DNA from: a phage
Sequence record: PZ386972.1
Strand: one strand, 5' to 3'
DNA length: 64,000 bases
Part shown: positions 6,935 through 60,386 of the stretch, piece after piece
Position numbering within the stretch: the first letter of the stretch is position 1
Layout: every line of letters begins with the position of its first letter
Program-made: the position numbers and the translations under genes
Notes under the pieces: generated by a model
Databases searched by the model: none
What the model saw: only the letters and a program-made list of their open reading frames with translations
Told to the model about the DNA's origin: nothing

Positions 6935-7420
6935 ATGGACCACAGAACAAGTATTGCACAAGCTATGGTTGACCGAATCTCTAAACAAATGGATGGTTCT
7001 CAACCTGACGAATATTTTAATAATCTATACGGAAACGTTTCTCGTCAAACTTATAAATTTGAGGAAATACGAGAGTTTCCTTATGTAGCAGTTCATATCG
7101 GAACTGAAACTGGGCAGTATCTTCCTTCAGGCCAACAGTGGATGTTTTTAGAACTTCCAATCCTGGTGTACGATAAAGAGAAAACAGACATTCAAGAGCA
7201 ACTTGAAAAACTCGTAGCGGATATAAAAACCGTTATTGACACAGGTGGAAATTTAGAATATACTGTTAGTAAACCTAATGGATCGACCTTCCCATGTGAG
7301 GCAACTGATATGATCATTACATCAGTTAGTACAGATGAGGGTCTACTGGCCCCATATGGTTTAGCAGAAATAAATGTAACAGTGAGGTATCAGCCTCCAC
7401 GTAGGTCACTTCGCAGATAA
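6935..7420 (+). CDS. tail completion / terminator protein (putative)
   Basis: 161-aa ORF immediately upstream of tail tube gene; synteny only. Confidence 0.4.
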   Translation: MDHRTSIAQAMVDRISKQMDGSQPDEYFNNLYGNVSRQTYKFEEIREFPYVAVHIGTETGQYLPSGQQWMFLELPILVYDKEKTDIQEQLEKLVADIKTVIDTGGNLEYTVSKPNGSTFPCEATDMIITSVSTDEGLLAPYGLAEINVTVRYQPPRRSLRR

Positions 7421-7446
7421 GTTACAGATTAGGAGAAAATAATTAA

Positions 7447-8841
7447 ATGTCTTTACAACTATTACGTAATACTCGAATCTTCGTGTCTACGGTTAAGACT
7501 GGTCATAATAAGACCAACACGCAAGAGATTCTAGTTCAGGATGATATTTCTTGGGGTCAGGACAGTAACTCAACAGATATTACTGTTAATGAGGCTGGTC
7601 CGCGTCCAACTCGTGGTTCTAAACGTTTTAACGACTCTTTAAACGCAGCTGAGTGGAGTTTCTCTACCTATATCCTGCCATATAAAGACAAAACTACTAA
7701 CAAACAAATTGTTCCTGACTATATGTTATGGCATGCACTTTCTAGTGGTAAAGCTATTAACCTAGAAGGTAATACGGGGGCACACAATAACGAAGCTAAC
7801 TTTATGGTTAACTTCAAAGATAACTCTTATCACGAGTTAGCAATGTTACACATTTATATTCTGACTGATAAAGCATGGAGTTATATCGATTCCTGTCAGA
7901 TTAATCAAGCAGAAGTTAACGTTGATATTGAAGATATTGGCCGTGTAACTTGGTCTGGTAATGGTAATCAGCTTATTCCTCTGGATGAGCAACCATTTGA
8001 CCCAGATGAAATAGGTATTGATGATGAAACTTACATGACTATCCAGGGTTCTTACATCAAGAACAAATTAACGATCCTTAAGATCAAGGACATGGATACC
8101 AATAAGTCTTACGACATACCAATTACCGGTGGTACTTTTACTATTAACAACAACATTACTTATCTAACACCTAATGTAATGTCCCGTGTTACTATTCCAA
8201 TTGGTTCCTTTACTGGTGCTTTTGAATTAACTGGTTCATTAACTGCTTATCTGAATGATAAATCTCTTGGTTCTATGGAACTGTATAAAGATCTTATCAA
8301 AACTCTGAAGGTAGTTAACCGCTTCGAAATAGCTCTAGTACTTGGTGGCGAGTATGAGGATGAACGTCCTGCAGCTATTCTGGTAGCCAAACAAGCGCAC
8401 GTTAATATTCCTACGATTGAGACTGATGATGTACTTGGTACATCAGTAGAGTTTAAGGCTATTCCGTCAGAGCTGGATGCAGGTGATGAGGGTTACTTAG
8501 GCTTCTCTAGTAAGTATACCAAAACAACTATTAATAACTTGATTGTTAATGGTAATGGTGCTACTGATGCTGTAACTGCAATTACTGTTAAATCTGCTGG
8601 TAATGTTACTACAGTAAACACTTCTGCCACTCTTCAGATGAGTGTTGAAGTTACTCCTTCTTCCGCAGAGAATAAGGAAGTTACTTGGGCTATCACTGCT
8701 GGTGATGCAGCTACTATCAGTGCAACAGGATTACTAAAAGCAGATGTTAGTAAAACTGGTGCAGTAACTGTAGAAGCTACTGCTAAAGATGGTTCTGGAG
8801 TTAAAGGCACTAAACAGATTACTGTAACAGCAGGTGGTTAA
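7447..8841 (+). CDS. tail tube protein with C-terminal Ig-like (Big_2-like) domain (pb6-like)
   Basis: 464-aa ORF; C-terminal TAITVKSAGNVTT...VTVEATAKDGSG...ITVTAGG Ig-like segment; RBS AGGAGAAAA upstream. Confidence 0.75.
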   Translation: MSLQLLRNTRIFVSTVKTGHNKTNTQEILVQDDISWGQDSNSTDITVNEAGPRPTRGSKRFNDSLNAAEWSFSTYILPYKDKTTNKQIVPDYMLWHALSSGKAINLEGNTGAHNNEANFMVNFKDNSYHELAMLHIYILTDKAWSYIDSCQINQAEVNVDIEDIGRVTWSGNGNQLIPLDEQPFDPDEIGIDDETYMTIQGSYIKNKLTILKIKDMDTNKSYDIPITGGTFTINNNITYLTPNVMSRVTIPIGSFTGAFELTGSLTAYLNDKSLGSMELYKDLIKTLKVVNRFEIALVLGGEYEDERPAAILVAKQAHVNIPTIETDDVLGTSVEFKAIPSELDAGDEGYLGFSSKYTKTTINNLIVNGNGATDAVTAITVKSAGNVTTVNTSATLQMSVEVTPSSAENKEVTWAITAGDAATISATGLLKADVSKTGAVTVEATAKDGSGVKGTKQITVTAGG

Positions 8842-10659: not shown

Positions 10660-13600
10660 ATGACTGATAAGCTAATACGAGAACTACTAATAGACGTTAA
10701 ACAGAAGGGGGCAACTCGTACTGCAAAGTCTATTGAAAACGTATCTGATGCGTTAGAAAACGCTGCTGCTGCTTCCGAACTGACAAATGAGCAGTTAGGT
10801 AAAATGCCCAAAACCCTTTACTCCATTGAGAGGGCAGCGGATAGAGCAGCGAAAAGTCTTACTAAAATGCAAGCAAGCCGAGGTATGCTTAGTGTTACTA
10901 AATCTATAAATGATATAGGAGCTAAGTTAGATGATCTTGCTATCCAACTTATTGAAGTAACAGATAAGCTAGAAATTGGATTCGATGGAGTTTCTAGATC
11001 TGTTAAAGCAATGGGTAATGATGTTGCAGCTGCAACAGAGAAAGTTCAAGATAGATTGTATGACACCAATAGAGTTTTAGGCGGTACAGCTAGAGGTTTT
11101 AATGATACTGCTGGTGCCGCTGGTAGAGCTTCTAGAGCTATTGGTAATACTTCTGGTTCAGCGCGTGGTGCAACTCGTGATTTTGCAGCAATGGCTAAGA
11201 TCGGTGGTAGTTTACCTATTATGTACGCAGCCCTTGCTTCCAACATCTTCGTTTTGCAATCTGCATTTGAACAACTTAAACTAGGTGATCAGCTAAATCG
11301 TCTAGAAAAATTTGGTGTTATAGTAGGTACTCAGACAGGTACTCCTGTTCAGACCCTTGCTAGATCACTACAAGAAGCTGCTGGATATGCTATTTCTTTT
11401 GAGGAAGCAATGAGACAGGCATCTTCAGCATCTGCTTATGGATTTGATGCCGAACAACTTAATAAATTTGGTTTAGTAGCTCGTCGTGCGGCTGCTGTTC
11501 TTGGCGTTGATATGACTGATGCACTTAACCGTGTAATTAAGGGCGTATCTAAACAAGAAATCGAACTTCTGGATGAACTTGGTGTCACCATTCGTCTTAA
11601 TGACGCATATGCTGATTATGTTAAACAGTTAAACGCTGCAAACACAGGTATAACATATAATATTAATAGCCTTACTACCTTCCAGAAACAGCAAGCATAC
11701 GCTAACGCGGTAATTGCTGAATCTACTAAGCGGTTTGGCTACCTAGATGAAGTACTACGTGCAACTCCATGGGAGCAATTTGCTGCTAATGCAGATGCTG
11801 CACTAAGAAAAATACAACAAGCTGCTGCCAAGTATTTAGGGCCAGTAATTGATGCTATCAACACAGTATTTTATACATCTCAGGCTTCTATATCTGCTGA
11901 GGCAGCTAGAGCTCAAGAAAAAACTAATAGACAGATAGATCCTAATAATGTAGGTGCTGTTGCTTTAAGTTTAGCTGCTTCTGAAGAAGGCTATAATAAA
12001 GCTCTAGATATGTATAAGGAATCTCTTGATAAGCGTAATAAGCTAAAATCTGAGTTCGATAAACGAATGGAACAGGCAGATTTCTATACAAAACTAGCTA
12101 TACGTCAAGTTGGTGAAGGTATTCCTGTTGGTCTTGCAGCAGCAGGTGCTTCGGAGGCCAATAAGCAATTTGTAGCAGAAACTGCAGCTATGGGTCTACA
12201 AGTAACTAGACTTGGTAAGGAAGTAGAGGATTCTACAGAGAATCTCAATGCTTGGAAATCAGCGTATCAAGCTGCTGGGGCTGCTGCTGCAAAGGCTAGT
12301 CCAGAGTTTCAGAAGCAAATTAATCTCCAGAGAGATACTACTGATCCTGATGCTGTATACGATTTTAACTCTACTGTATTAAAAGGACTAACTGAGCAGC
12401 AGAAAGCGTACAATCAGACTAAGAAAACTGCTAGTGACTTAGCTAATGACTTTCAAAATATAGCTAGTAGCACAGATACTGCTGCTAAAACCAGTGCAAC
12501 TTTTGAAGAGGTAATTAAAAACATATCGTCTCTATCCGCAGGAACTGGTAAGAGTGCTGATGATTATGTTAAAAGCCTCAACTTAGGGTTTAACACTCTG
12601 TCTGAAATGAAAACTGCGTCTCAGGCCTTATCTGAGTACGTTAAACTAACTGGTAATGAGACTAAGAACCAGTTAGCAGTTCAACAGAAGATAGCGGATG
12701 TATATAACCAAACTAAGGATAAAGAAAAAGCACAGGAAGCTGGTAGACGTTTAGAGTTGCAACAGTTAGAAGAGCAAGAAACTGCTTTACGCCGTGTTCT
12801 TCAAACAAACCAGGGAAATAAAGCTGTTGAGAAAGAAATTGAAAAAATTCAGCTGGAGAAACTTAAACTTACCAATCAAGGTATGGAAGCTCAGAAGAAG
12901 GTCAAGAATTACACAGATAAAATTCTTGGTGTAGATCGTGAGATAGCTCTCTTAAATAACCGTACTATGACAGATACTCAGTATCGTCTAGCACAGTTAA
13001 ATCTTGAATTGACCATTGAAAAAGAGAAGTATGAATGGTATACAAAACAAGCTGATAAACAGAAAGAGGCAGAACAGTCTAGACGTGCTCAAGCCCAAAT
13101 TGAACGTGAAATCTGGAAATTCCGTCAGGATCAGATTGCTTCAATGGCTGCTGGTAGAGAGGAAGAACAGCAAAGACAATTTACTGCTAAACCATTAATG
13201 GGAAATGCGGAGCGCTTACAGGAACAGCTAAAATTATATGAAGACTTAAAGCAGAAAACATTAGGTAATGCTGCGGCACAAGCGGAGTATAATAAAAAGA
13301 TAGCTGAAACTAGGGCACAACTAGCAGGTTTAAGAGCACAGAGAAATGCGGATATGCAAACTTCTGTTGGGTCTTCTTTAGGTGCTGTGTACACTCCTAC
13401 AACTGGGCTATCTGGAGAGGATAAAGATTTTGCTGATATGCAGAATAGGATGTCTTCATATGACCAAGCAATTTCTAAACTATCTGAGTTAAATTCCGAA
13501 GCTACTGCTGTAGCTCAAAGCATGGGTAATTTAACTAATGCTATGATTCAGTTCTCCATGGGATCTTTAGATACTACTTCCACGATCGCAGCAGGTATGC

Positions 13601-14340
13601 AGACTGTAGCCTCTATGATTCAATATAGTACTAGCCAACAAGTTAGTGCAATTGATCAGGCTATTGCAGCAGAACAGAAACGAGATGGTAAATCTGAAGC
13701 CTCTAAAGCTAAACTGAAAAAGTTAGAAGCTGAAAAGTTAAAAATCCAGCAAGATGCAGCTAAGAAACAAATTATTATCCAGACAGCAGTAGCAGTAATG
13801 CAAGCGGCAACAGCTGTACCATACCCGTTCTCTATTCCTTTGATGGTGGCGGCAGGTTTAGCAGGTGCCTTAGCTCTTGCTCAAGCATCTTCTGCGTCTG
13901 GCATGTCTTCTATTGCAGATTCTGGAGCAGATACTACTCAGTATCTAACTCTAGGTGAGCGACAGAAGAACGTTGATGTATCTATGCAAGCTAGTTCAGG
14001 AGAACTATCCTACTTACGTGGTGATAAGGGTATTGGTAATGCCAATTCATTTGTTCCGCGTGCTGAGGGTGGTATGATGTACCCTGGAGTAAGCTATCAA
14101 ATGGGTGAGCATGGTACCGAAGTAGTAACTCCTATGGTTCCTATGAAAGCCACACCTAATGATCAGCTTTCCGATGGATCAAAGACTACCTCTGGAAGAC
14201 CAATCATTCTGAATATTAGCACAATGGATGCTGCTAGCTTTAGAGATTTTGCATCGAATAATAGCACTGCTTTAAGAGATGCCGTGGAACTGGCTCTTAA
14301 TGAGAATGGATCCACCCTTAAATCTCTTGGTAATATGTAA
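10660..14340 (+). CDS. tail tape measure protein (pb2-like)
   Basis: 1226-aa ORF, largely alpha-helical/coiled-coil with Ala/Gln-rich low complexity and hydrophobic segment near C-terminus. Confidence 0.85.
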   Translation: MTDKLIRELLIDVKQKGATRTAKSIENVSDALENAAAASELTNEQLGKMPKTLYSIERAADRAAKSLTKMQASRGMLSVTKSINDIGAKLDDLAIQLIEVTDKLEIGFDGVSRSVKAMGNDVAAATEKVQDRLYDTNRVLGGTARGFNDTAGAAGRASRAIGNTSGSARGATRDFAAMAKIGGSLPIMYAALASNIFVLQSAFEQLKLGDQLNRLEKFGVIVGTQTGTPVQTLARSLQEAAGYAISFEEAMRQASSASAYGFDAEQLNKFGLVARRAAAVLGVDMTDALNRVIKGVSKQEIELLDELGVTIRLNDAYADYVKQLNAANTGITYNINSLTTFQKQQAYANAVIAESTKRFGYLDEVLRATPWEQFAANADAALRKIQQAAAKYLGPVIDAINTVFYTSQASISAEAARAQEKTNRQIDPNNVGAVALSLAASEEGYNKALDMYKESLDKRNKLKSEFDKRMEQADFYTKLAIRQVGEGIPVGLAAAGASEANKQFVAETAAMGLQVTRLGKEVEDSTENLNAWKSAYQAAGAAAAKASPEFQKQINLQRDTTDPDAVYDFNSTVLKGLTEQQKAYNQTKKTASDLANDFQNIASSTDTAAKTSATFEEVIKNISSLSAGTGKSADDYVKSLNLGFNTLSEMKTASQALSEYVKLTGNETKNQLAVQQKIADVYNQTKDKEKAQEAGRRLELQQLEEQETALRRVLQTNQGNKAVEKEIEKIQLEKLKLTNQGMEAQKKVKNYTDKILGVDREIALLNNRTMTDTQYRLAQLNLELTIEKEKYEWYTKQADKQKEAEQSRRAQAQIEREIWKFRQDQIASMAAGREEEQQRQFTAKPLMGNAERLQEQLKLYEDLKQKTLGNAAAQAEYNKKIAETRAQLAGLRAQRNADMQTSVGSSLGAVYTPTTGLSGEDKDFADMQNRMSSYDQAISKLSELNSEATAVAQSMGNLTNAMIQFSMGSLDTTSTIAAGMQTVASMIQYSTSQQVSAIDQAIAAEQKRDGKSEASKAKLKKLEAEKLKIQQDAAKKQIIIQTAVAVMQAATAVPYPFSIPLMVAAGLAGALALAQASSASGMSSIADSGADTTQYLTLGERQKNVDVSMQASSGELSYLRGDKGIGNANSFVPRAEGGMMYPGVSYQMGEHGTEVVTPMVPMKATPNDQLSDGSKTTSGRPIILNISTMDAASFRDFASNNSTALRDAVELALNENGSTLKSLGNM

Positions 14341-46945: not shown

Positions 46946-46974
46946 CGGATAAAACCGAGCCAAAATGACTCGGT
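46946..46974 (-). terminator. rho-independent terminator ending the nrdD-Sir2 operon
   Basis: ACCGAG / CTCGGT stem followed by TTTTATCC on minus strand. Confidence 0.6.
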
Positions 46975-46997: not shown

Positions 46998-47390
46998 TCA
47001 TTCATCATTTAATCCTGGAACATAGATCCCAACACGATTTAATTGTTCTTTAGCTTCTGCGAGAATATCTGGAGTGTACTCCCAAATATCGTCTTCCACC
47101 TGTAAAAGATGGGAAGAACAACCATCATGCGGCACACGACATATGGCCAAACCACGTGGATGGAACAAAGAGAAATTTAGGGCAACAATTAAACCCATAG
47201 CAGACAACTCATTCCAATCCAACTCCCATTCCCCCGCGTAGCCGGATAGGAAAACACCAACACAGGGATCATCTATTTGCTGCTCCGGAAAAGTGAAGGA
47301 GGCTTGTCTTACCCCCAACCAACGTTGTAGCAGCTTCTCCGCACGTTTCACCAAACTAGGATCAATCTGACGCCAATATACTTGTTCCAT
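46998..47390 (-). CDS. hypothetical protein, tandem paralog A
   Basis: 130 aa; shares PCVG ... GEWELDWNELS.MGL..ALN..LF.P ... VPGL pattern with 47400-47828. Confidence 0.45.
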   Translation of the reverse strand: MEQVYWRQIDPSLVKRAEKLLQRWLGVRQASFTFPEQQIDDPCVGVFLSGYAGEWELDWNELSAMGLIVALNFSLFHPRGLAICRVPHDGCSSHLLQVEDDIWEYTPDILAEAKEQLNRVGIYVPGLNDE

Positions 47391-47399
47391 TCTGCCTCC

Positions 47400-47828
47400 T
47401 TAAGCAGTTAAACCTGGGATCATATACCCGAAACGTCGAAGTTTCTGAATCCCATCATTTACTTCTTCCGGTGAGTAAGACCAACCGTAACGTTCATTAA
47501 CCTGAAAACCAGGAGATTCACTAGTTTTATAGTTAACAACAAGGCGATGCTTAGCAGGCATAAACAGCTTATAGTTTAACGCAAAAACTAAGCCCATTTC
47601 ATCTAACTCTTTCCAGCCGACAATTTCTTCAAGACCCTCCTCTACCTGAACAATTAAACCAATACAGGGAGCCTCATCAATATCATCTTTAAAAGCAAAG
47701 GAGATTTCGTTATTCTCACACCATATTTTCAAAGAGTTAATAGCCTCATTATATAGGCTAGCTGGGAGAGTACGCCAAAAGTTAACCAAAATTGGGTTAG
47801 CTTCTTTAGAGAATACATTATTGAACAT
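47400..47828 (-). CDS. hypothetical protein, tandem paralog B
   Basis: 142 aa; paralogous to 46998-47390. Confidence 0.45.
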   Translation of the reverse strand: MFNNVFSKEANPILVNFWRTLPASLYNEAINSLKIWCENNEISFAFKDDIDEAPCIGLIVQVEEGLEEIVGWKELDEMGLVFALNYKLFMPAKHRLVVNYKTSESPGFQVNERYGWSYSPEEVNDGIQKLRRFGYMIPGLTA

Positions 47829-47830
47829 AT

Positions 47831-48337
47831 TTACACCTTAAATTGCTGTAAGGATTTACACATTTCAAGATCCGGACTAAATTCTAGCATATAGCTAACA
47901 GCTTTTAAATCTTGAAGATTTATCCCAGTCCTACCGTTGACTATAACCGTTGGATACTGATACATCATAGCACCCGCATCATCAAGCACACACCAATGTT
48001 TGAGCTTATGCTTTTCAACGAAGCGAAGAACAGAATTACCCCTAGATAATCCACCTCCAGTAAAATCCGTTGTACCAAGAAAGCGATCGATAAGACCTAA
48101 TCCGGTCATAATCTGAACGTTCTCCATCTCATTTCTAACAGAGAACCAAGATGATACCCCAACAATCATTATTGGGGAAGGACGAATAAAGTCCTGAAAA
48201 GCCTTGAGAAGTGGTTTGAAAACCCAGTCACTTCCAAAGAAAATCTTTTCATCATCAGGTGCATGATGGTGGGAGATGCTCGAATTGAGCACCCCATCAA
48301 TATCTAGAAAAATAATTGGAGTATTACTTATTTCCAT
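47831..48337 (-). CDS. HAD-superfamily phosphatase (putative nucleotidase)
   Basis: 168 aa; N-terminal IIFLDIDGVLN matches HAD motif I. Confidence 0.55.
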   Translation of the reverse strand: MEISNTPIIFLDIDGVLNSSISHHHAPDDEKIFFGSDWVFKPLLKAFQDFIRPSPIMIVGVSSWFSVRNEMENVQIMTGLGLIDRFLGTTDFTGGGLSRGNSVLRFVEKHKLKHWCVLDDAGAMMYQYPTVIVNGRTGINLQDLKAVSYMLEFSPDLEMCKSLQQFKV

Positions 48338-48506
48338 TTTTGTTCCTTTCTAAGAACGTATCATACTCAACCGTATCAACATATATAACACCATAGTCAT
48401 CGGATTTATAGTCCATTTCCCACAGCTCACAGCGATAGCACCAACTACCATCAGCCCATACAAATATATCATCGGGATGTGTATAAACAGATTTAACTAT
48501 GGACAT
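48324..48506 (-). CDS. small hypothetical protein (WCYR-motif paralog 1)
   Basis: 60 aa; DIFVWADGSWCYR shared with next ORF. Confidence 0.35.
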   Translation of the reverse strand: MSIVKSVYTHPDDIFVWADGSWCYRCELWEMDYKSDDYGVIYVDTVEYDTFLERNKNGNK

Positions 48507-48682
48507 ACCTGTTTCTCCTCATCTCCAGAGGAGAACCACATATTATCCGTAGTATAGATAATTTTATATGTGTATCCCAACCGTTTTCTTACACTAGGAA
48601 ACCTGTAGGCAAACCTATAACACCAAGTGCCAGACTCAGTTATAAAAATATCCCATTCATTATTTCTTGCTTCTCGACACAT
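48497..48682 (-). CDS. small hypothetical protein (WCYR-motif paralog 2)
   Basis: 61 aa; DIFITESGTWCYR. Confidence 0.35.
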   Translation of the reverse strand: MCREARNNEWDIFITESGTWCYRFAYRFPSVRKRLGYTYKIIYTTDNMWFSSGDEEKQVCP

Positions 48683-49478
48683 AAGGTCTACCCTCTAAAT
48701 GAGCTTCTACACGAGCAATAAAATCAGGATCACTGAAAGCATCTACCGCACCCTTACTCCAATAAGGGATACTACGTTCTTCCAGCTGGTACATCTCACT
48801 ACGAGTCATACCCTGATAGCCTGGCTCCGCTGCTAGGGCACTATCATAGTAGTTAACTACCATAAATTTCGCAGCAGTCCTATTAAGAACAGGAAATAAT
48901 TCCCAGTAGAAGTTAATTACTTGGTTAGAGCAACCAACCACAACGATCATATCTTGGCTGGTAATACCATCAAAAACATTGTACATTTCTGCATATGCTG
49001 GAGCATGCTCTCCAAAGAAGATTACATTAGGTTTAACCCATTTATAATCATCTGGATCAATAGAAGTATATCCTACATCAATAACCAGTTTATTGCTACT
49101 ATTGTAGCTATCAGCTACAACAACCTCTTTTAAATATCCGTGAATGTGCAGAATGTCACTATGTGGAACGCCAGCACGCTCAATAAGGTCATCGACGTTG
49201 GTAGTCAAGTTTACTACTTGACCTGGATATTGTTTATACCATTCACCAATACGCAAATGCGCAAGATTGGGTTCAACAGTTTTTAGCTCTTCACGACGCT
49301 TGTTGTAAAACATATGGGTTTTATGATAAAAATTACCACGAAAGGCATGAATATTACATACTTCTTCTAGATCATAATCATCCCACAATGCTTTACCACT
49401 AGCAGTATCAGTACGAAAAGCTCGTACACCACTTTCAACACTCAAACCTGCACCGCTAATAATAATTAATCTACGCAT
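48660..49478 (-). CDS. Sir2-like (sirtuin family) NAD-dependent deacylase / ADP-ribosyltransferase, zinc-ribbon cysteines absent
   Basis: 272 aa; SGAGLSVESGVRAFR, TTNVDDL, HIHG catalytic His, VVVGCS align to sirtuin motifs; no CxxC pairs in the zinc-module region. Confidence 0.7.
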   Translation of the reverse strand: MRRLIIISGAGLSVESGVRAFRTDTASGKALWDDYDLEEVCNIHAFRGNFYHKTHMFYNKRREELKTVEPNLAHLRIGEWYKQYPGQVVNLTTNVDDLIERAGVPHSDILHIHGYLKEVVVADSYNSSNKLVIDVGYTSIDPDDYKWVKPNVIFFGEHAPAYAEMYNVFDGITSQDMIVVVGCSNQVINFYWELFPVLNRTAAKFMVVNYYDSALAAEPGYQGMTRSEMYQLEERSIPYWSKGAVDAFSDPDFIARVEAHLEGRPYVSRSKK

Positions 49479-49692
49479 TTTTCACCTGTTCTCTGAAGTT
49501 TTGCCCAATACTGTCTAATAGCTCAGCTAATTCTTTATTGCCTTTCTCCGTTAAGGTATTAGCAATAACTTCTAGCATAGTAGCGCAGGATTCAACACCG
49601 TCCTTATAGCCAGCTTCCCATTGCTGCATTAATGCGTTTTCCAAAGCAGCGTTTAAACCCTTATCTGGTAGCATCGGCTTCGAGAATGCCAT
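49471..49692 (-). CDS. hypothetical protein
   Basis: 73-aa ORF. Confidence 0.35.
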   Translation of the reverse strand: MAFSKPMLPDKGLNAALENALMQQWEAGYKDGVESCATMLEVIANTLTEKGNKELAELLDSIGQNFREQVKNA

Positions 49693-49879
49693 AAAGTTTC
49701 TCCTCTAGTTCCATAACACGATTTTCATAAGAGGCACGCAACTTTTCAATTGCCAGCGCACGCACTGTAACCTCATTAGAGTTAATAGCTAATTGGGCCA
49801 GATCTTCTGTTTCCATACGTCCGTTGTAAATTAAGCGATATTTAAGATGTTTTACATTCTTCATAGTTTCTCCTCTCAA
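49661..49879 (-). CDS. hypothetical protein
   Basis: 72-aa ORF downstream of promoter 49892-49920 with GAGAGGAGAAA RBS. Confidence 0.4.
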   Translation of the reverse strand: MRGETMKNVKHLKYRLIYNGRMETEDLAQLAINSNEVTVRALAIEKLRASYENRVMELEEKLYGILEADATR

Positions 49880-49891
49880 ATTTATAAATCA

Positions 49892-49920
49892 ATTATACAT
49901 AAGTTTTAGCTCGAAAGCAA
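49892..49920 (-). promoter_or_regulatory. early promoter (TTGCTT, 17 bp, TATAAT)
   Basis: read on minus strand. Confidence 0.6.
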
Positions 49921-49955
49921 ATAAAATAAAAGCCAGGTCGACTAGCAACCCGGCT
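49921..49955 (-). terminator. hairpin terminator after nrdD
   Basis: AGCCAGGT / ACCCGGCT imperfect stem followed by TTTTATTTTAT on minus strand. Confidence 0.5.
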
Positions 49956-49962
49956 GATTAGC

Positions 49963-51837
49963 TTATTTAGCTCGAATATCCTGATGTTTCACCCTACCCA
50001 TAACTTCATGTTGTTTGCCGGGGTTAAATGGACGAGCACCCGGATTTCCAAGATACCCACAAACTCGACGAGTTACTTCAAGAGTTTCTGGGTCATGATT
50101 ACCACAGATAGGGCACTTAAATCCATCTTCGGATGCTATTGTTTCACCTAAGAATCCACATTTACCACAAGAATCTACTGGAGTATTAATACCGAAGTAA
50201 TGAACCTTACTAGCAGCATAATTAATAACCCATTCGAGTGCATCTGGGAATCGTTTCATATCCGGTAGTTCTACATAGGAAATACACCCACCAGAAGCAA
50301 TCGGAGTAAAGTTAGATTCATAATCAAATTTCACGTTAGGAGCAACTTTACGTTCTACATCAAGGTGATGCGAGTTAGTATAGTATCCTTTGGACAGAAT
50401 ATCTTCATGCTCCGGGAAATATTCACGATCTAGACGACAAAAACGGTCACATAGGGACTCTGATGGTGTAGCATACAGGCTATAACCTAACTTAGTTTCT
50501 TCCTTCTTCTGATCTACCCTATCCCGCATGTACTGCAGTACACGCTGAACAAACTTGATGCAGGTCTCGGACATTGTGTCTATATCTTTGCCAAACATGA
50601 ACTGTAGCATTTCATGGCAACCAATATACCCTAGAGATACAGAAGCACGGTTATAGAAATGATCGAATACGTATTCATCAGGCTCCAAGCGCAGTCCAAA
50701 GGCTCCTGACATATAGAGGATGGGTGCAGCTTTAGCTTGAATGTATTTTAAGCGATCAACTCTCCACTCCAATGCTTTTAACGCTGTATCCACACGTAGC
50801 TCAAGCAAATCAAAGAATAGGTCAATATTTCCTTCAGCTTCGATAGCAATTCTAGGCAAGTTTACAGAAACAACACCTAAGTTATTACGACCGGCAGTTT
50901 CACCATCTTCTGTAGCAGCTAGGAATGAACGGCAGCCCATAGAAACTTTGTAGTCTCCAGTAACTTCTACAACTTTGTCATAGCTGATATAATCTGGATA
51001 CATACGTTCAGCAGTACATTTCATAGCTAACTTCTTGATGTCATAATTAACATCTCCTGGTTTCATATTTACGCCATCACGAAGCACAAATACCAGTTTC
51101 GGGAAGATAGCTGTACGTTTATTGATACCTAAACCATCCATGCGTACTTTCAGTATTGCTTTCTGTACTAGACGTGCTTCCCAAGAAGTTCCTAGACCAA
51201 AACCAAAGGTAATAAATGGACTCTGACCATTAGAGTTGAACATCGTATTGATTTCATACTCTAGACCCTGACAAGCATCATAGACTTCTTTTTCAGTCAT
51301 CTCCGTAGCCATTACTGATGCTTTGGCTTCATCCTTAGTCCAACGTTTTGCAAAGGCATGATTTTTGTCATAGGATTTACGAACATAAGGAGCTAATACC
51401 TCATCTAATCGGTCTACAGAAGTACCACCATACTGATGGGAGCTAACCTGTGTGATAATCTGAGCTGTAATAGCCGCCGCAGTAGTAATAGAGTTTGGAG
51501 TACTAATTTCAGCATTACCAACCTTCATACCATTCTTCAACATATCTTCCAGAGCTACCAGACAACAATTAGTCATGCCTAATGCAGCATAATCAGCATC
51601 ATGGAAATGAATATCCCCAATCATATGAGCATTTCGAATCTGAATTGGCATTTCTTCTAGAATCAGATACTTACTCAATTCACCTGCAAGCATATCCCTC
51701 TGTGTAGGGAAACGTTCTGAGGGTTTATTGGCATTATTAAACAGCAGCTCTTCATCTGCTGACCCTTCGATAATCTCTTTGCAGTTTCTAATTAACGCCT
51801 GCATTTCTTTATACTTTAGTTCTTCATTGCGATTCAT
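49963..51837 (-). CDS. nrdD: anaerobic ribonucleoside-triphosphate reductase (class III, glycyl radical)
   Basis: 624 aa; C-terminal RVCGYLG glycyl-radical motif and CxxC zinc ribbon (CGKCG ... CPICG). Confidence 0.9.
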   Translation of the reverse strand: MNRNEELKYKEMQALIRNCKEIIEGSADEELLFNNANKPSERFPTQRDMLAGELSKYLILEEMPIQIRNAHMIGDIHFHDADYAALGMTNCCLVALEDMLKNGMKVGNAEISTPNSITTAAAITAQIITQVSSHQYGGTSVDRLDEVLAPYVRKSYDKNHAFAKRWTKDEAKASVMATEMTEKEVYDACQGLEYEINTMFNSNGQSPFITFGFGLGTSWEARLVQKAILKVRMDGLGINKRTAIFPKLVFVLRDGVNMKPGDVNYDIKKLAMKCTAERMYPDYISYDKVVEVTGDYKVSMGCRSFLAATEDGETAGRNNLGVVSVNLPRIAIEAEGNIDLFFDLLELRVDTALKALEWRVDRLKYIQAKAAPILYMSGAFGLRLEPDEYVFDHFYNRASVSLGYIGCHEMLQFMFGKDIDTMSETCIKFVQRVLQYMRDRVDQKKEETKLGYSLYATPSESLCDRFCRLDREYFPEHEDILSKGYYTNSHHLDVERKVAPNVKFDYESNFTPIASGGCISYVELPDMKRFPDALEWVINYAASKVHYFGINTPVDSCGKCGFLGETIASEDGFKCPICGNHDPETLEVTRRVCGYLGNPGARPFNPGKQHEVMGRVKHQDIRAK

Positions 51838-59655: not shown

Positions 59656-59940
59656 ATGCGAATTTATAACTCAAATTCATTAGGATTTAAACCATTGAGA
59701 AAACGTGCACAATCACCTCGTCAAATAAGAAAGGCTAATATTGGTGAGCCAGAAACACGTCTTCCACCTCCTCCAGAACAACGTTTAGTTTATCTGGACG
59801 AAGAATTAGCTGAACGCGAAAGAAAAGCTCAAGAAGAGATTGAGCGTAAGAAAATGTGTACTGCCCCAGCCTACTCCAAAGGGGCTTATCAGTATATCTA
59901 TACAGCCGAAGAGGCCAAAGATGCGGGGCGTAAAAAATGA
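59656..59940 (+). CDS. hypothetical protein
   Basis: 94-aa ORF co-transcribed with NADAR gene. Confidence 0.4.
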   Translation: MRIYNSNSLGFKPLRKRAQSPRQIRKANIGEPETRLPPPPEQRLVYLDEELAERERKAQEEIERKKMCTAPAYSKGAYQYIYTAEEAKDAGRKK

Positions 59941-60386
59941 AGATTACTGAATTTAAAGGTGCTTATAGTTTCTTATCTAACTTTTATTTATCACCAATTA
60001 CTTTCGAATATCTGAATGAAATATGGCATGCTGATACTGTAGAACATGCTTTTCAGGCTATGAAATCCGACCAAAAAGATGATGTAGCTCATGTACTACG
60101 CTCCCTAAATGCAGGAGTTGCTAAACGTAGAGGACGTAAATTAATTCTACGCTCTGACTGGGATAAGGTAAAAGATGATGTAATGTTAGAGCTTTTACGG
60201 TTAAAGTTTGCAATCCCTGATTTGAGAGACAAACTGTTAGCAACAGAAAATGCAACTTTGATTGAAGGAAATACCTGGGGGGATACATATTGGGGTGTTT
60301 GCCGAGGCATCGGGGATAATACTTTAGGAGTTCTTTTGATGCAGGTAAGGTCTGAAATTAAAAGAAGCTTACAGTTAATAAATTAA
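59937..60386 (+). CDS. NADAR-family (YbiA-like) protein; putative ADP-ribose N-glycosidase
   Basis: 149 aa; YSFLSNFY, EHAFQAMK, LLATENATLIEGNTWGDTYWG align along the length of E. coli YbiA. Confidence 0.7.
   Translation: MKITEFKGAYSFLSNFYLSPITFEYLNEIWHADTVEHAFQAMKSDQKDDVAHVLRSLNAGVAKRRGRKLILRSDWDKVKDDVMLELLRLKFAIPDLRDKLLATENATLIEGNTWGDTYWGVCRGIGDNTLGVLLMQVRSEIKRSLQLIN

Follow-up and report, generated by a model that had tools for sequence, protein, structure and literature searches.

Iyer, Burroughs, Anantharaman and Aravind (2022; Viruses 14:1977; PMC9503650) distinguished three types of gene neighbourhood around phage sirtuins, with Rnl1/cREC/kinase/MazG, 2H/Nudix/PIN or HAD_SAK genes as the RNA-end processors, of which the third, defined by a HAD gene, is typified by the T5-like phage SP15, and proposed for these proteins a KptA-like removal of RNA 2'-phosphates; their text mentions no zinc-binding module for these sirtuins, its sole match to "zinc" being "zincin-like metallopeptidase". 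For the Sir2 of vibriophages, Skliros et al. (2016; PMC5107563) discussed a zinc "finger" domain held by salt bridges, listed T5 as carrying a homolog and favoured, as a proposal, deacetylation of host Acs. The SirTM sirtuins (Rack et al. 2015; PMC4518038) keep the zinc domain, have the catalytic His replaced by Gln, are operon-linked to a macrodomain and ADP-ribosylate proteins. Here we analyse a phage sequence of 64,000 nucleotides from record PZ386972.1 (hereafter the window), which carries on its minus strand a Sir2-like open reading frame (ORF) of 272 codons, encoding 272 amino acids (aa), at the position given for it by an initial annotation made from the sequence alone (Table 1). The gene encodes a genuine sirtuin with an intact set of catalytic residues, and the explanation that best accounts for it, which we hold tentatively and as something short of probable, is that the enzyme acts on damaged-RNA ends by KptA/Tpt1-like chemistry.

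The window comes from a T5-like phage. Over the 1.6 kb around the Sir2 gene, identity to Salmonella phage vB_StyS-LmqsSP1 (Tequintavirus) reaches 99.2%; the record of that phage labels the same ORF "NAD-dependent protein deacetylase (SIR2 family)", and the DNA of phage SP15 is 95% identical to the window locus. A T5 contig (locus L011) encodes a protein of the same length that is 95% identical; the ortholog in the T5 reference record is T5.102, labelled "Sir2 (NAD-dependent deacetylase)", and it has the same HAD_SAK_2 neighbour and no functional difference that we could find. The window gene is therefore already known as the ortholog of T5.102, long annotated and under a Sir2 label since the 2005 T5 genome, which bears out the earlier suspicion that it might be annotated in T5-like genomes. 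Relatives occur in 978 of 50,697 phage records by tblastn (~2%), nearly all of which carry a Sir2-like label already; among the phages concerned are T5-like, rV5-like, ~146-kb Klebsiella and Erwinia phages, KVP40-like vibriophages and jumbo phages. Because a motif-based scan of one genome per species across 185,579 prokaryotic species gave a single close relative, 41% identical and situated on a phage-like contig of a metagenome-assembled genome, the sirtuin clade is essentially phage-restricted. A word-indexed search returned 172 relatives, of which 120 are listed, each at least 50% identical and almost all from phage-sized contigs; the conservation counts for the clade given below refer to these 120 listed homologs. 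HMMER, run exhaustively against 1.84 billion cluster representatives, returned 2,952 relatives, 42 of them at E ≤ 1e-30.

The four motifs on which the frame had been assigned to the sirtuin catalytic core are all present (GAGLSVESGVRAFR at residues 9-22, TTNVDDL at 92-98, HIHG at 111-114 and VVVGCS at 179-184), and the similarity to sirtuins is far above chance. The Pfam SIR2 model (PF02146) matches with 87 bits, where the gathering cutoff is 24 (E = 1.9e-24), over model positions 1-178 of 180, and no other Pfam family matches at E ≤ 1; PHROG 2162 "Sir2" matches at E = 3e-120, and a sequence search of the PDB gives 84 distinct sequences at E ≤ 0.001, the best being E. coli CobB (1s5p, E = 2.6e-17). 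AlphaFold2, supplied with an alignment of 120 sequences, returns a model with pLDDT 90.3 and pTM 0.89 in which the cofactor loop (residues 23-30) is the sole disordered part. The model has a Rossmann fold and a small domain that superpose on solved sirtuins: CobB 1s5p is the top Foldseek match (E = 4e-17, target TM 0.84), Sir2Af1 and SIRT5 come next, and 278 PDB chains match at E ≤ 0.001. Profile search and structure prediction, both of which had been put forward as checks on the sirtuin assignment, thus uphold it, and so does conservation of the catalytic His and Asn.

Active-site conservation is close to complete. The NAD loop G9-A10-G11 is kept in 119 of the 120 homologs, and S13, S16, G17, F21, R22, Y58, R61, R62, N94, D96, H113, G114, F154, F155, E157, G182, S184 and N209 are invariant in all 120; H113, N94, D96, S13 and F21-R22 each align with their CobB equivalents. 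The class III Y-x-x-R motif is present as FYNKRR, with Y58 and R61 as its invariant residues, and this motif, together with the top matches by sequence and by structure, makes class III (CobB/SIRT5-type) sirtuins the nearest characterised relatives of the protein. With CobB and SIRT5 the phage protein has in common the Rossmann fold with its small domain and the GAGxS, FR, FYNxRR, N-x-D, HG and FGE motifs. It is only 28% identical to CobB, however: it lacks the zinc cysteines, carries TTN and V-I-N-F in place of TQN and V-Y-P, and has an insertion of ~20 residues before the last strand. We rejected its identification as a CobB equivalog because its scores on the NCBIfam CobB-type models fall below all curated cutoffs (at best 100 and 89 bits against 243 and 320, NF040867 and PRK00481 models).

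The initial annotation had also noted that the region normally holding the zinc module contains no cysteine pairs. This is correct, since the stretch from the catalytic His113 to the FGE motif is free of cysteines and the zinc cysteines of CobB are unmatched: in a pairwise projection CobB C155 aligns with V121, and C174, C176 and C177 face a gap that follows D144. The protein has two cysteines, C41 and C183, both outside the region, and the canonical four-cysteine zinc-binding module is, as far as the alignment can tell, absent. The loss extends across the clade, with a CxxC motif found in none of the 120 homologs anywhere in the sequence, and with no cysteine in the zinc-module stretch of 67, one in 49 and two in 4. 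The clade has also fixed two other derived characters: where the canonical motif reads TQN(I/V)D, all 120 have Thr in place of Gln, and the substrate loop, canonically V-Y-P, is V-I-(N/D)-F. Among the best 150 cluster representatives, Thr occurs without cysteines in 32 and with them in 10, and Gln without cysteines in 12 and with them in 81, so that Thr at the TQN position tracks cysteine absence (Fisher p = 9e-13 for these 150, a value not corrected for shared ancestry). Some zinc-less sequences are ordinary CobB-like relatives in which the TQN, WFGE and VYPAA motifs are kept. In place of the zinc ribbon, AlphaFold2 predicts three beta-strands (residues 114-122, 131-134 and 147-152) at pLDDT 91-97.

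All three neighbourhood types of Iyer et al. (2022) are reproduced here. The window's Sir2 fits their phage RNA-repair sirtuin clade, with a HAD_SAK_2 gene beyond two small genes downstream; the description of the corresponding Pfam family, PF18143, reads "HAD domain in Swiss Army Knife RNA repair proteins". Of 34 T5-like (Demerecviridae-type) loci, 31 have nrdD, small ORFs, Sir2, small ORF(s), HAD, two DUF7415 genes and origin-binding protein in this order; in T5 itself the arrangement between nrdD and the origin-binding protein matches that of the window, save that the pair of small ORFs ahead of Sir2 differs in size. More can be learnt from independent backbones. In ~146-kb phages (L026, L028-31, L039, L048, L051, L056), whose Sir2 is about 50-62% identical to that of the window, the gene sits in a conserved block of calcineurin-like phosphoesterase, RNA_lig_T4_1, cREC_REC (cyclic-phosphate processing), AAA_33 kinase, Sir2, ATP-dependent ligase and MazG-like genes, in that order. 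At locus L058, whose Sir2 shows 43% identity, nrdD and nrdG are located upstream of the gene and a HAD_SAK_2 gene (E = 4e-21) follows 2.4 kb downstream, and at L062 a Zn-containing sirtuin relative is two genes away from RNA ligase 1. Two distant phage-like contigs (L061, 5057..10758; L064, 2664..9669) present the order NAMPT, small ORF(s), zinc-less TTN sirtuin, endonuclease VII, nrdD and nrdG, with NADAR upstream in addition in L064 and a glutaredoxin-like gene downstream in L061; in both, the sirtuin is physically linked to nicotinamide salvage and anaerobic ribonucleotide reduction. The long multi-domain Zn-containing relatives (P0145 and others) offered no functional hint, Pfam scans finding only SIR2 and unrelated repeats. 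KVP40-like vibriophages carry a Sir2/CobB protein about 36-43% identical to that of the window, on another phage backbone and adjoining NAD-salvage genes.

If the sirtuin does act on damaged-RNA ends, we envisage that it would bind NAD+, release nicotinamide and form a C1'-O adduct with an anionic oxygen nucleophile, and that the ribose 2'-OH, activated by His113, would then resolve the adduct. The likeliest nucleophile would be a terminal or junction 2'-phosphate on damaged RNA, for example on a phage or host tRNA cut by anticodon nucleases, in which case the products would be RNA 2'-OH and ADP-ribose 1'',2''-cyclic phosphate, as in KptA/Tpt1. Leftover end phosphates could be cleared by the co-transcribed HAD_SAK_2 phosphatase, and Tyr58/Arg61, the binder of the succinyl-lysine carboxylate in SIRT5 and CobB, might be re-used to hold phosphate. 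When the nucleophile is a 2'-phosphate, the two-step chemistry of sirtuins would formally equal the two steps of Tpt1/KptA, in which NAD+-dependent ADP-ribosylation of the 2'-phosphate is followed by 2''-OH attack. The likeness is one of analogy: homology to KptA/Tpt1 was rejected, the folds being unrelated, the phage structure that of a sirtuin and no such Pfam match being found. An association with RNA ligase and end-healing genes is nevertheless common to KptA/Tpt1 and the phage sirtuin. The occurrence of NAMPT and NADAR beside Sir2 in L061/L064 fits a reaction that frees nicotinamide and ADP-ribose derivatives. From independent data we thus infer the same RNA-repair hypothesis as Iyer et al. 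(2022), and we offer it as a hypothesis. A broader proposal, which we consider unlikely on present evidence, is that the zinc-free TTN clade comprises the first sirtuins with nucleic acid as their physiological substrate, as analogs of Tpt1/KptA that would ADP-ribosylate and remove RNA 2'-phosphates or cap phosphorylated RNA ends and, together with HAD_SAK_2, repair tRNAs cut by anticodon nucleases of the host, with the Tyr/Arg pair serving as a phosphate clamp.

Several observations weigh against action on RNA ends. The whole case for an RNA substrate comes from gene neighbourhood, and synteny among T5-like phages is by itself weak evidence because it is inherited, as the linkage of Sir2 to HAD could also be. 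HAD went undetected in three divergent T5-like loci (L052, L054 and L055), and Pfam scans of the genes neighbouring Sir2 in ~149-kb phages (L043-L049, L053) gave no recognisable domains. A tblastn search of the 64-kb window for homologs of RNA ligase, kinase, cREC, MazG, NAMPT and nrdG found none of these and yielded a NADAR gene alone; as no RNA ligase or polynucleotide-kinase homolog is present in the window, RNA sealing would need host enzymes. The literature searched contained no experimental work on T5.102 or other phage sirtuins, in agreement with the earlier statement that the function was uncharacterised. Finally, the residues for lysine deacylation (FGE loop, His113 and Y-x-x-R) are all conserved too, and the closest characterised relatives are all protein deacylases.

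The conserved deacylation residues and the deacylase relatives speak for the reading of the protein as a CobB-like NAD-dependent lysine deacylase (deacetylase, desuccinylase or lipoamidase) that frees proteins of the host or phage from acyl groups at an early stage of infection and has swapped its zinc ribbon for a metal-free beta-sheet, which we regard as a serious possibility though on balance a doubtful one. The best sequence and structure matches are without exception characterised deacylases (CobB, Sir2Af1/2, Sir2Tm and SIRT5), the CobB models are the best NCBIfam matches, and the catalytic His, FGE loop and class III motif are invariant. The small domain appears to have been kept, because AlphaFold2 puts its three confident strands where the zinc module would be, and the zinc-less relatives with otherwise CobB-like motifs provide a precedent; a deacylase is also how the vibriophage Sir2 was read (PMC5107563). 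Yet the protein scores 44-100 bits on the models for CobB and allied deacylases, for which the curated cutoffs lie at 221-395, the TQN Gln has become Thr and the VYP substrate loop V-I-N/D-F across the clade, and a general deacylase leaves unexplained why the gene recurs beside RNA-end-processing genes in unrelated phage backbones. Transfer of ADP-ribose to some other target (a protein, DNA or RNA 5'-phosphate ends, or a nucleotide), in host takeover or counter-defence and perhaps paired with the phage NADAR as eraser or by-product processor, is an improbable reading that nonetheless draws on the capacity of the sirtuin fold for ADP-ribosyl transfer, as in SirTM (PMC4518038); on this reading both would be sirtuin-fold enzymes that transfer ADP-ribose in preference to deacylating. 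A NADAR gene is present in the window (Table 1), NADAR and NAMPT adjoin Sir2 in L064, and the sirtuin allele is swapped in some T5-like phages, as is typical of conflict genes. The known ADP-ribosylating SirTM, however, lacks the catalytic His and is linked to a macrodomain, whereas the phage protein has the His and its operon contains no macrodomain, and the window NADAR lies at a distance from Sir2 on the opposite strand. Membership of SirTM itself was rejected, given the missing zinc cysteines, the invariant His113 and the absence of a macrodomain from the operon genes.

The initial annotation had reasoned that zinc-less SIR2 domains are typically NAD-cleaving effectors, and had suggested that the phage copy might remodel host NAD pools or modify a target by ADP-ribosylation. 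That the protein is a NAD+ glycohydrolase acting to deplete or remodel the NAD pool of the host, as the analogy to zinc-less SIR2 effectors of defence systems would suggest, is in our view very unlikely. The phage protein does share with the defence SIR2 NADases (ThsA, DSR1/2, SIR2-HerA, SIR2-APAZ/pAgo) the use of NAD+ and the missing zinc ribbon, and it has the catalytic Asn and His that such NADases need too. Those proteins, however, are host-encoded and fused or coupled to sensors, while the phage Sir2 stands alone as a single domain. PADLOC matched no defence SIR2 model, Pfam gave no SIR2_2 at E ≤ 1, and defence SIR2 structures account for none of the top 50 PDB Foldseek matches. Moreover, NAD depletion is an abortive-infection strategy of the host, and related phages place the NAD-rebuilding NAMPT beside the sirtuin. 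T5-type phages depend on a NAD-dependent DNA ligase, which also counts against a NADase. The NADase reading is disfavoured because the homology tests are negative and NAMPT adjoins the sirtuin in related phages; the step from zinc loss to NAD cleavage is a weak one for a protein that matches PF02146 only, finds its best matches in class III and has zinc-less CobB-like relatives. Assignment to the defence type (ThsA, DSR, SIR2-HerA, SPARSA) was likewise rejected, PADLOC having given only a spurious restriction-enzyme match at E = 0.046. As to the two suggested activities, ADP-ribosyl transfer in itself is plausible, but the genomic context points to RNA ends over remodelling of NAD pools.

The sirtuin may have the NADAR-domain protein of the window as a functional partner, or as a processor of its by-products. 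Its counterpart in L064, 37% identical, lies two genes from NAMPT and four genes upstream of Sir2.

The arrangement of the genes around Sir2 is given in Table 1. The initial annotation had placed Sir2 inside the nrdD operon and assumed co-transcription with nucleotide-metabolism genes. nrdD does lie upstream of Sir2 and on its strand, but a terminator and a promoter intervene, and since both are conserved, Sir2 is the third gene of a separate early unit of eight genes with its own promoter and terminator. The terminator hairpin after nrdD has a folding energy of -15.4 kcal/mol (z = -3.5), and none of 200 shuffled sequences folded equally well. In a spacer alignment of 29 T5-like loci both elements are conserved, and in the most divergent loci (L033 and L052) the stem sequence has changed on both sides with pairing kept, that is, in a compensatory manner. 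The T5 reference record annotates the same two elements as terminator and promoter, and another terminator and promoter after T5.107. Within the eight-gene unit, start and stop codons overlap or almost touch. Read-through from nrdD into the unit may occur. The association with nucleotide metabolism therefore stands as a neighbourhood, its linkage to nrdD/nrdG and NAMPT recurring in distant phages, and is not supported as an operon.

Table 1. Features of the Sir2 unit and related elements in the window (window coordinates).
Feature	Coordinates	Strand	Length	Remarks
nrdD	49963..51837	minus		preceded by perfect TTGACA-17-TATAAT promoter
intrinsic-terminator hairpin	49955..49931	minus		10-bp GC-rich stem, directly after nrdD stop; T-run to 49920
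sigma-70-type promoter of the Sir2 unit	49920..49892	minus		TTGCTT-N17-TATAAT
small ORF, phrog_5236	49661..49864	minus	67 aa	from ATG 49864; strong ribosome-binding site 49877..49870; first gene of unit
small ORF, phrog_5827	49471..49692	minus	73 aa	stop overlaps Sir2 start by 8 nt
Sir2, T5.102 ortholog	48660..49478	minus	272 aa	H113, N94, D96, F21/R22, Y58/R61; without zinc-cysteine set
small ORF, phrog_5116	48497..48682	minus	61 aa	overlaps Sir2 3' end by 23 nt
small ORF, phrog_5116	48324..48506	minus	60 aa	paralog of 48497..48682 ORF
HAD_SAK_2 phosphatase, T5.105 ortholog	47831..48337	minus	168 aa	PF18143 E = 4e-20; DIDGV motif
DUF7415 protein, T5.106 ortholog	47400..47828	minus	142 aa	
DUF7415 protein, T5.107 ortholog	46998..47390	minus	130 aa	last gene of unit
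weak terminator-like hairpin	46974..46951	minus		ACCGAG...CTCGGT then TTTT; homologous to T5-annotated terminator
NADAR-domain protein	59937..60386	plus	149 aa	Pfam E = 2e-21; ADP-ribose-processing family; 10.5 kb from Sir2

Some smaller features of this region were also recorded. A second copy of the 53-bp promoter region of the Sir2 unit (~49873..49925) is found ~6.5 kb downstream in every T5-like locus, 81-88% identical and at ~12,800-13,900 in loci L003-L025, which suggests a repeated early-promoter module. The two phrog_5116 paralogs between Sir2 and HAD have a W-C-Y-R motif in common, and the Sir2-proximal copy went undetected in 20 of the 23 closest T5-like loci (L003-L025). The nrdD gene of T5-like phages occurs as two alleles, ~60% identical at the protein level, in near-identical contexts (loci L003, L004, L008, L009, L018, L021 and L038), and the activase gene nrdG, for which tblastn of the 64-kb window gave no homolog, adjoins nrdD in the distant L058, L061 and L064.

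Variation among T5-like phages bears on how far the sirtuin is needed. In the viable T5-like Escherichia phage DT57C (NC_027356; L068 2980..3252), deletions relative to window positions 47971..48842 and 48986..49478 have removed the N-terminal two-thirds and the C-terminus of Sir2, both small ORFs and most of the HAD gene. What is left is a 90-aa chimera, termed "defective" in the record, in which Sir2 residues ~165-212 are joined to the HAD C-terminus. Because a viable phage has lost both, Sir2 and HAD are accessory, dispensable for growth of DT57C on its host and lost together. Four further T5-like loci (L038, L040, L041 and L042) have, at 7001..7837, a Sir2 variant of ~280 aa that is 51-52% identical to the window's, within flanking nrdD, phoH, HAD and origin-binding genes that are 89-98% identical, with the exception of nrdD in L038 (60%). 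This disparity between gene and flanks indicates that the sirtuin allele was replaced by recombination in these phages, a pattern often seen in conflict-related genes.

The locus is also affected by labelling errors. PHROG 18062 carries the wrong label "Sir2 (NAD-dependent deacetylase)": it matches HAD_SAK_2, over the C-terminal half of that protein, at E = 6e-58 and Sir2 only weakly (E = 3e-6), with the effect that many RefSeq phage records wrongly list T5.105 (L063 5089..5595) and its orthologs as a second "Sir2". The mixed signal of this family likely stems from chimeric ORFs such as the Sir2-HAD fusion of DT57C. A split or intron-containing Sir2 gene was considered and rejected, the second "Sir2" being HAD by way of phrog_18062 and the extra BLAST pieces being indels in neighbouring small ORFs. 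The tandem DUF7415 genes (46998..47828; L001 5699..6529) are labelled "tail tube protein" in LmqsSP1, probably a mis-annotation because they lie in an early-gene region, and T5.097, whose counterpart in the window is the small ORF that follows phoH, likewise bears in T5 the label "tail length tape measure protein".

Much of this was known before: the annotation of the gene, the clade and its functional hypothesis (2022), and the zinc issue in vibriophages (2016). The clade-wide loss of zinc cysteines coupled to the Gln-to-Thr change, the boundaries of the operon, the co-deletion in DT57C and the phrog_18062 mis-annotation are new but incremental. Among the carriers of this sirtuin are T5, a model phage, and many therapeutic phages of the T5-like and rV5-like types. 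T5 makes the question of function tractable, with DT57C at hand as a natural relative deficient in Sir2 and HAD for comparison. Should the protein prove to be a plain deacylase, phages would be shown to edit host protein acylation; should it act on RNA ends, it would represent a new class of sirtuin substrate and a phage counter-measure to RNA-targeting host defences.

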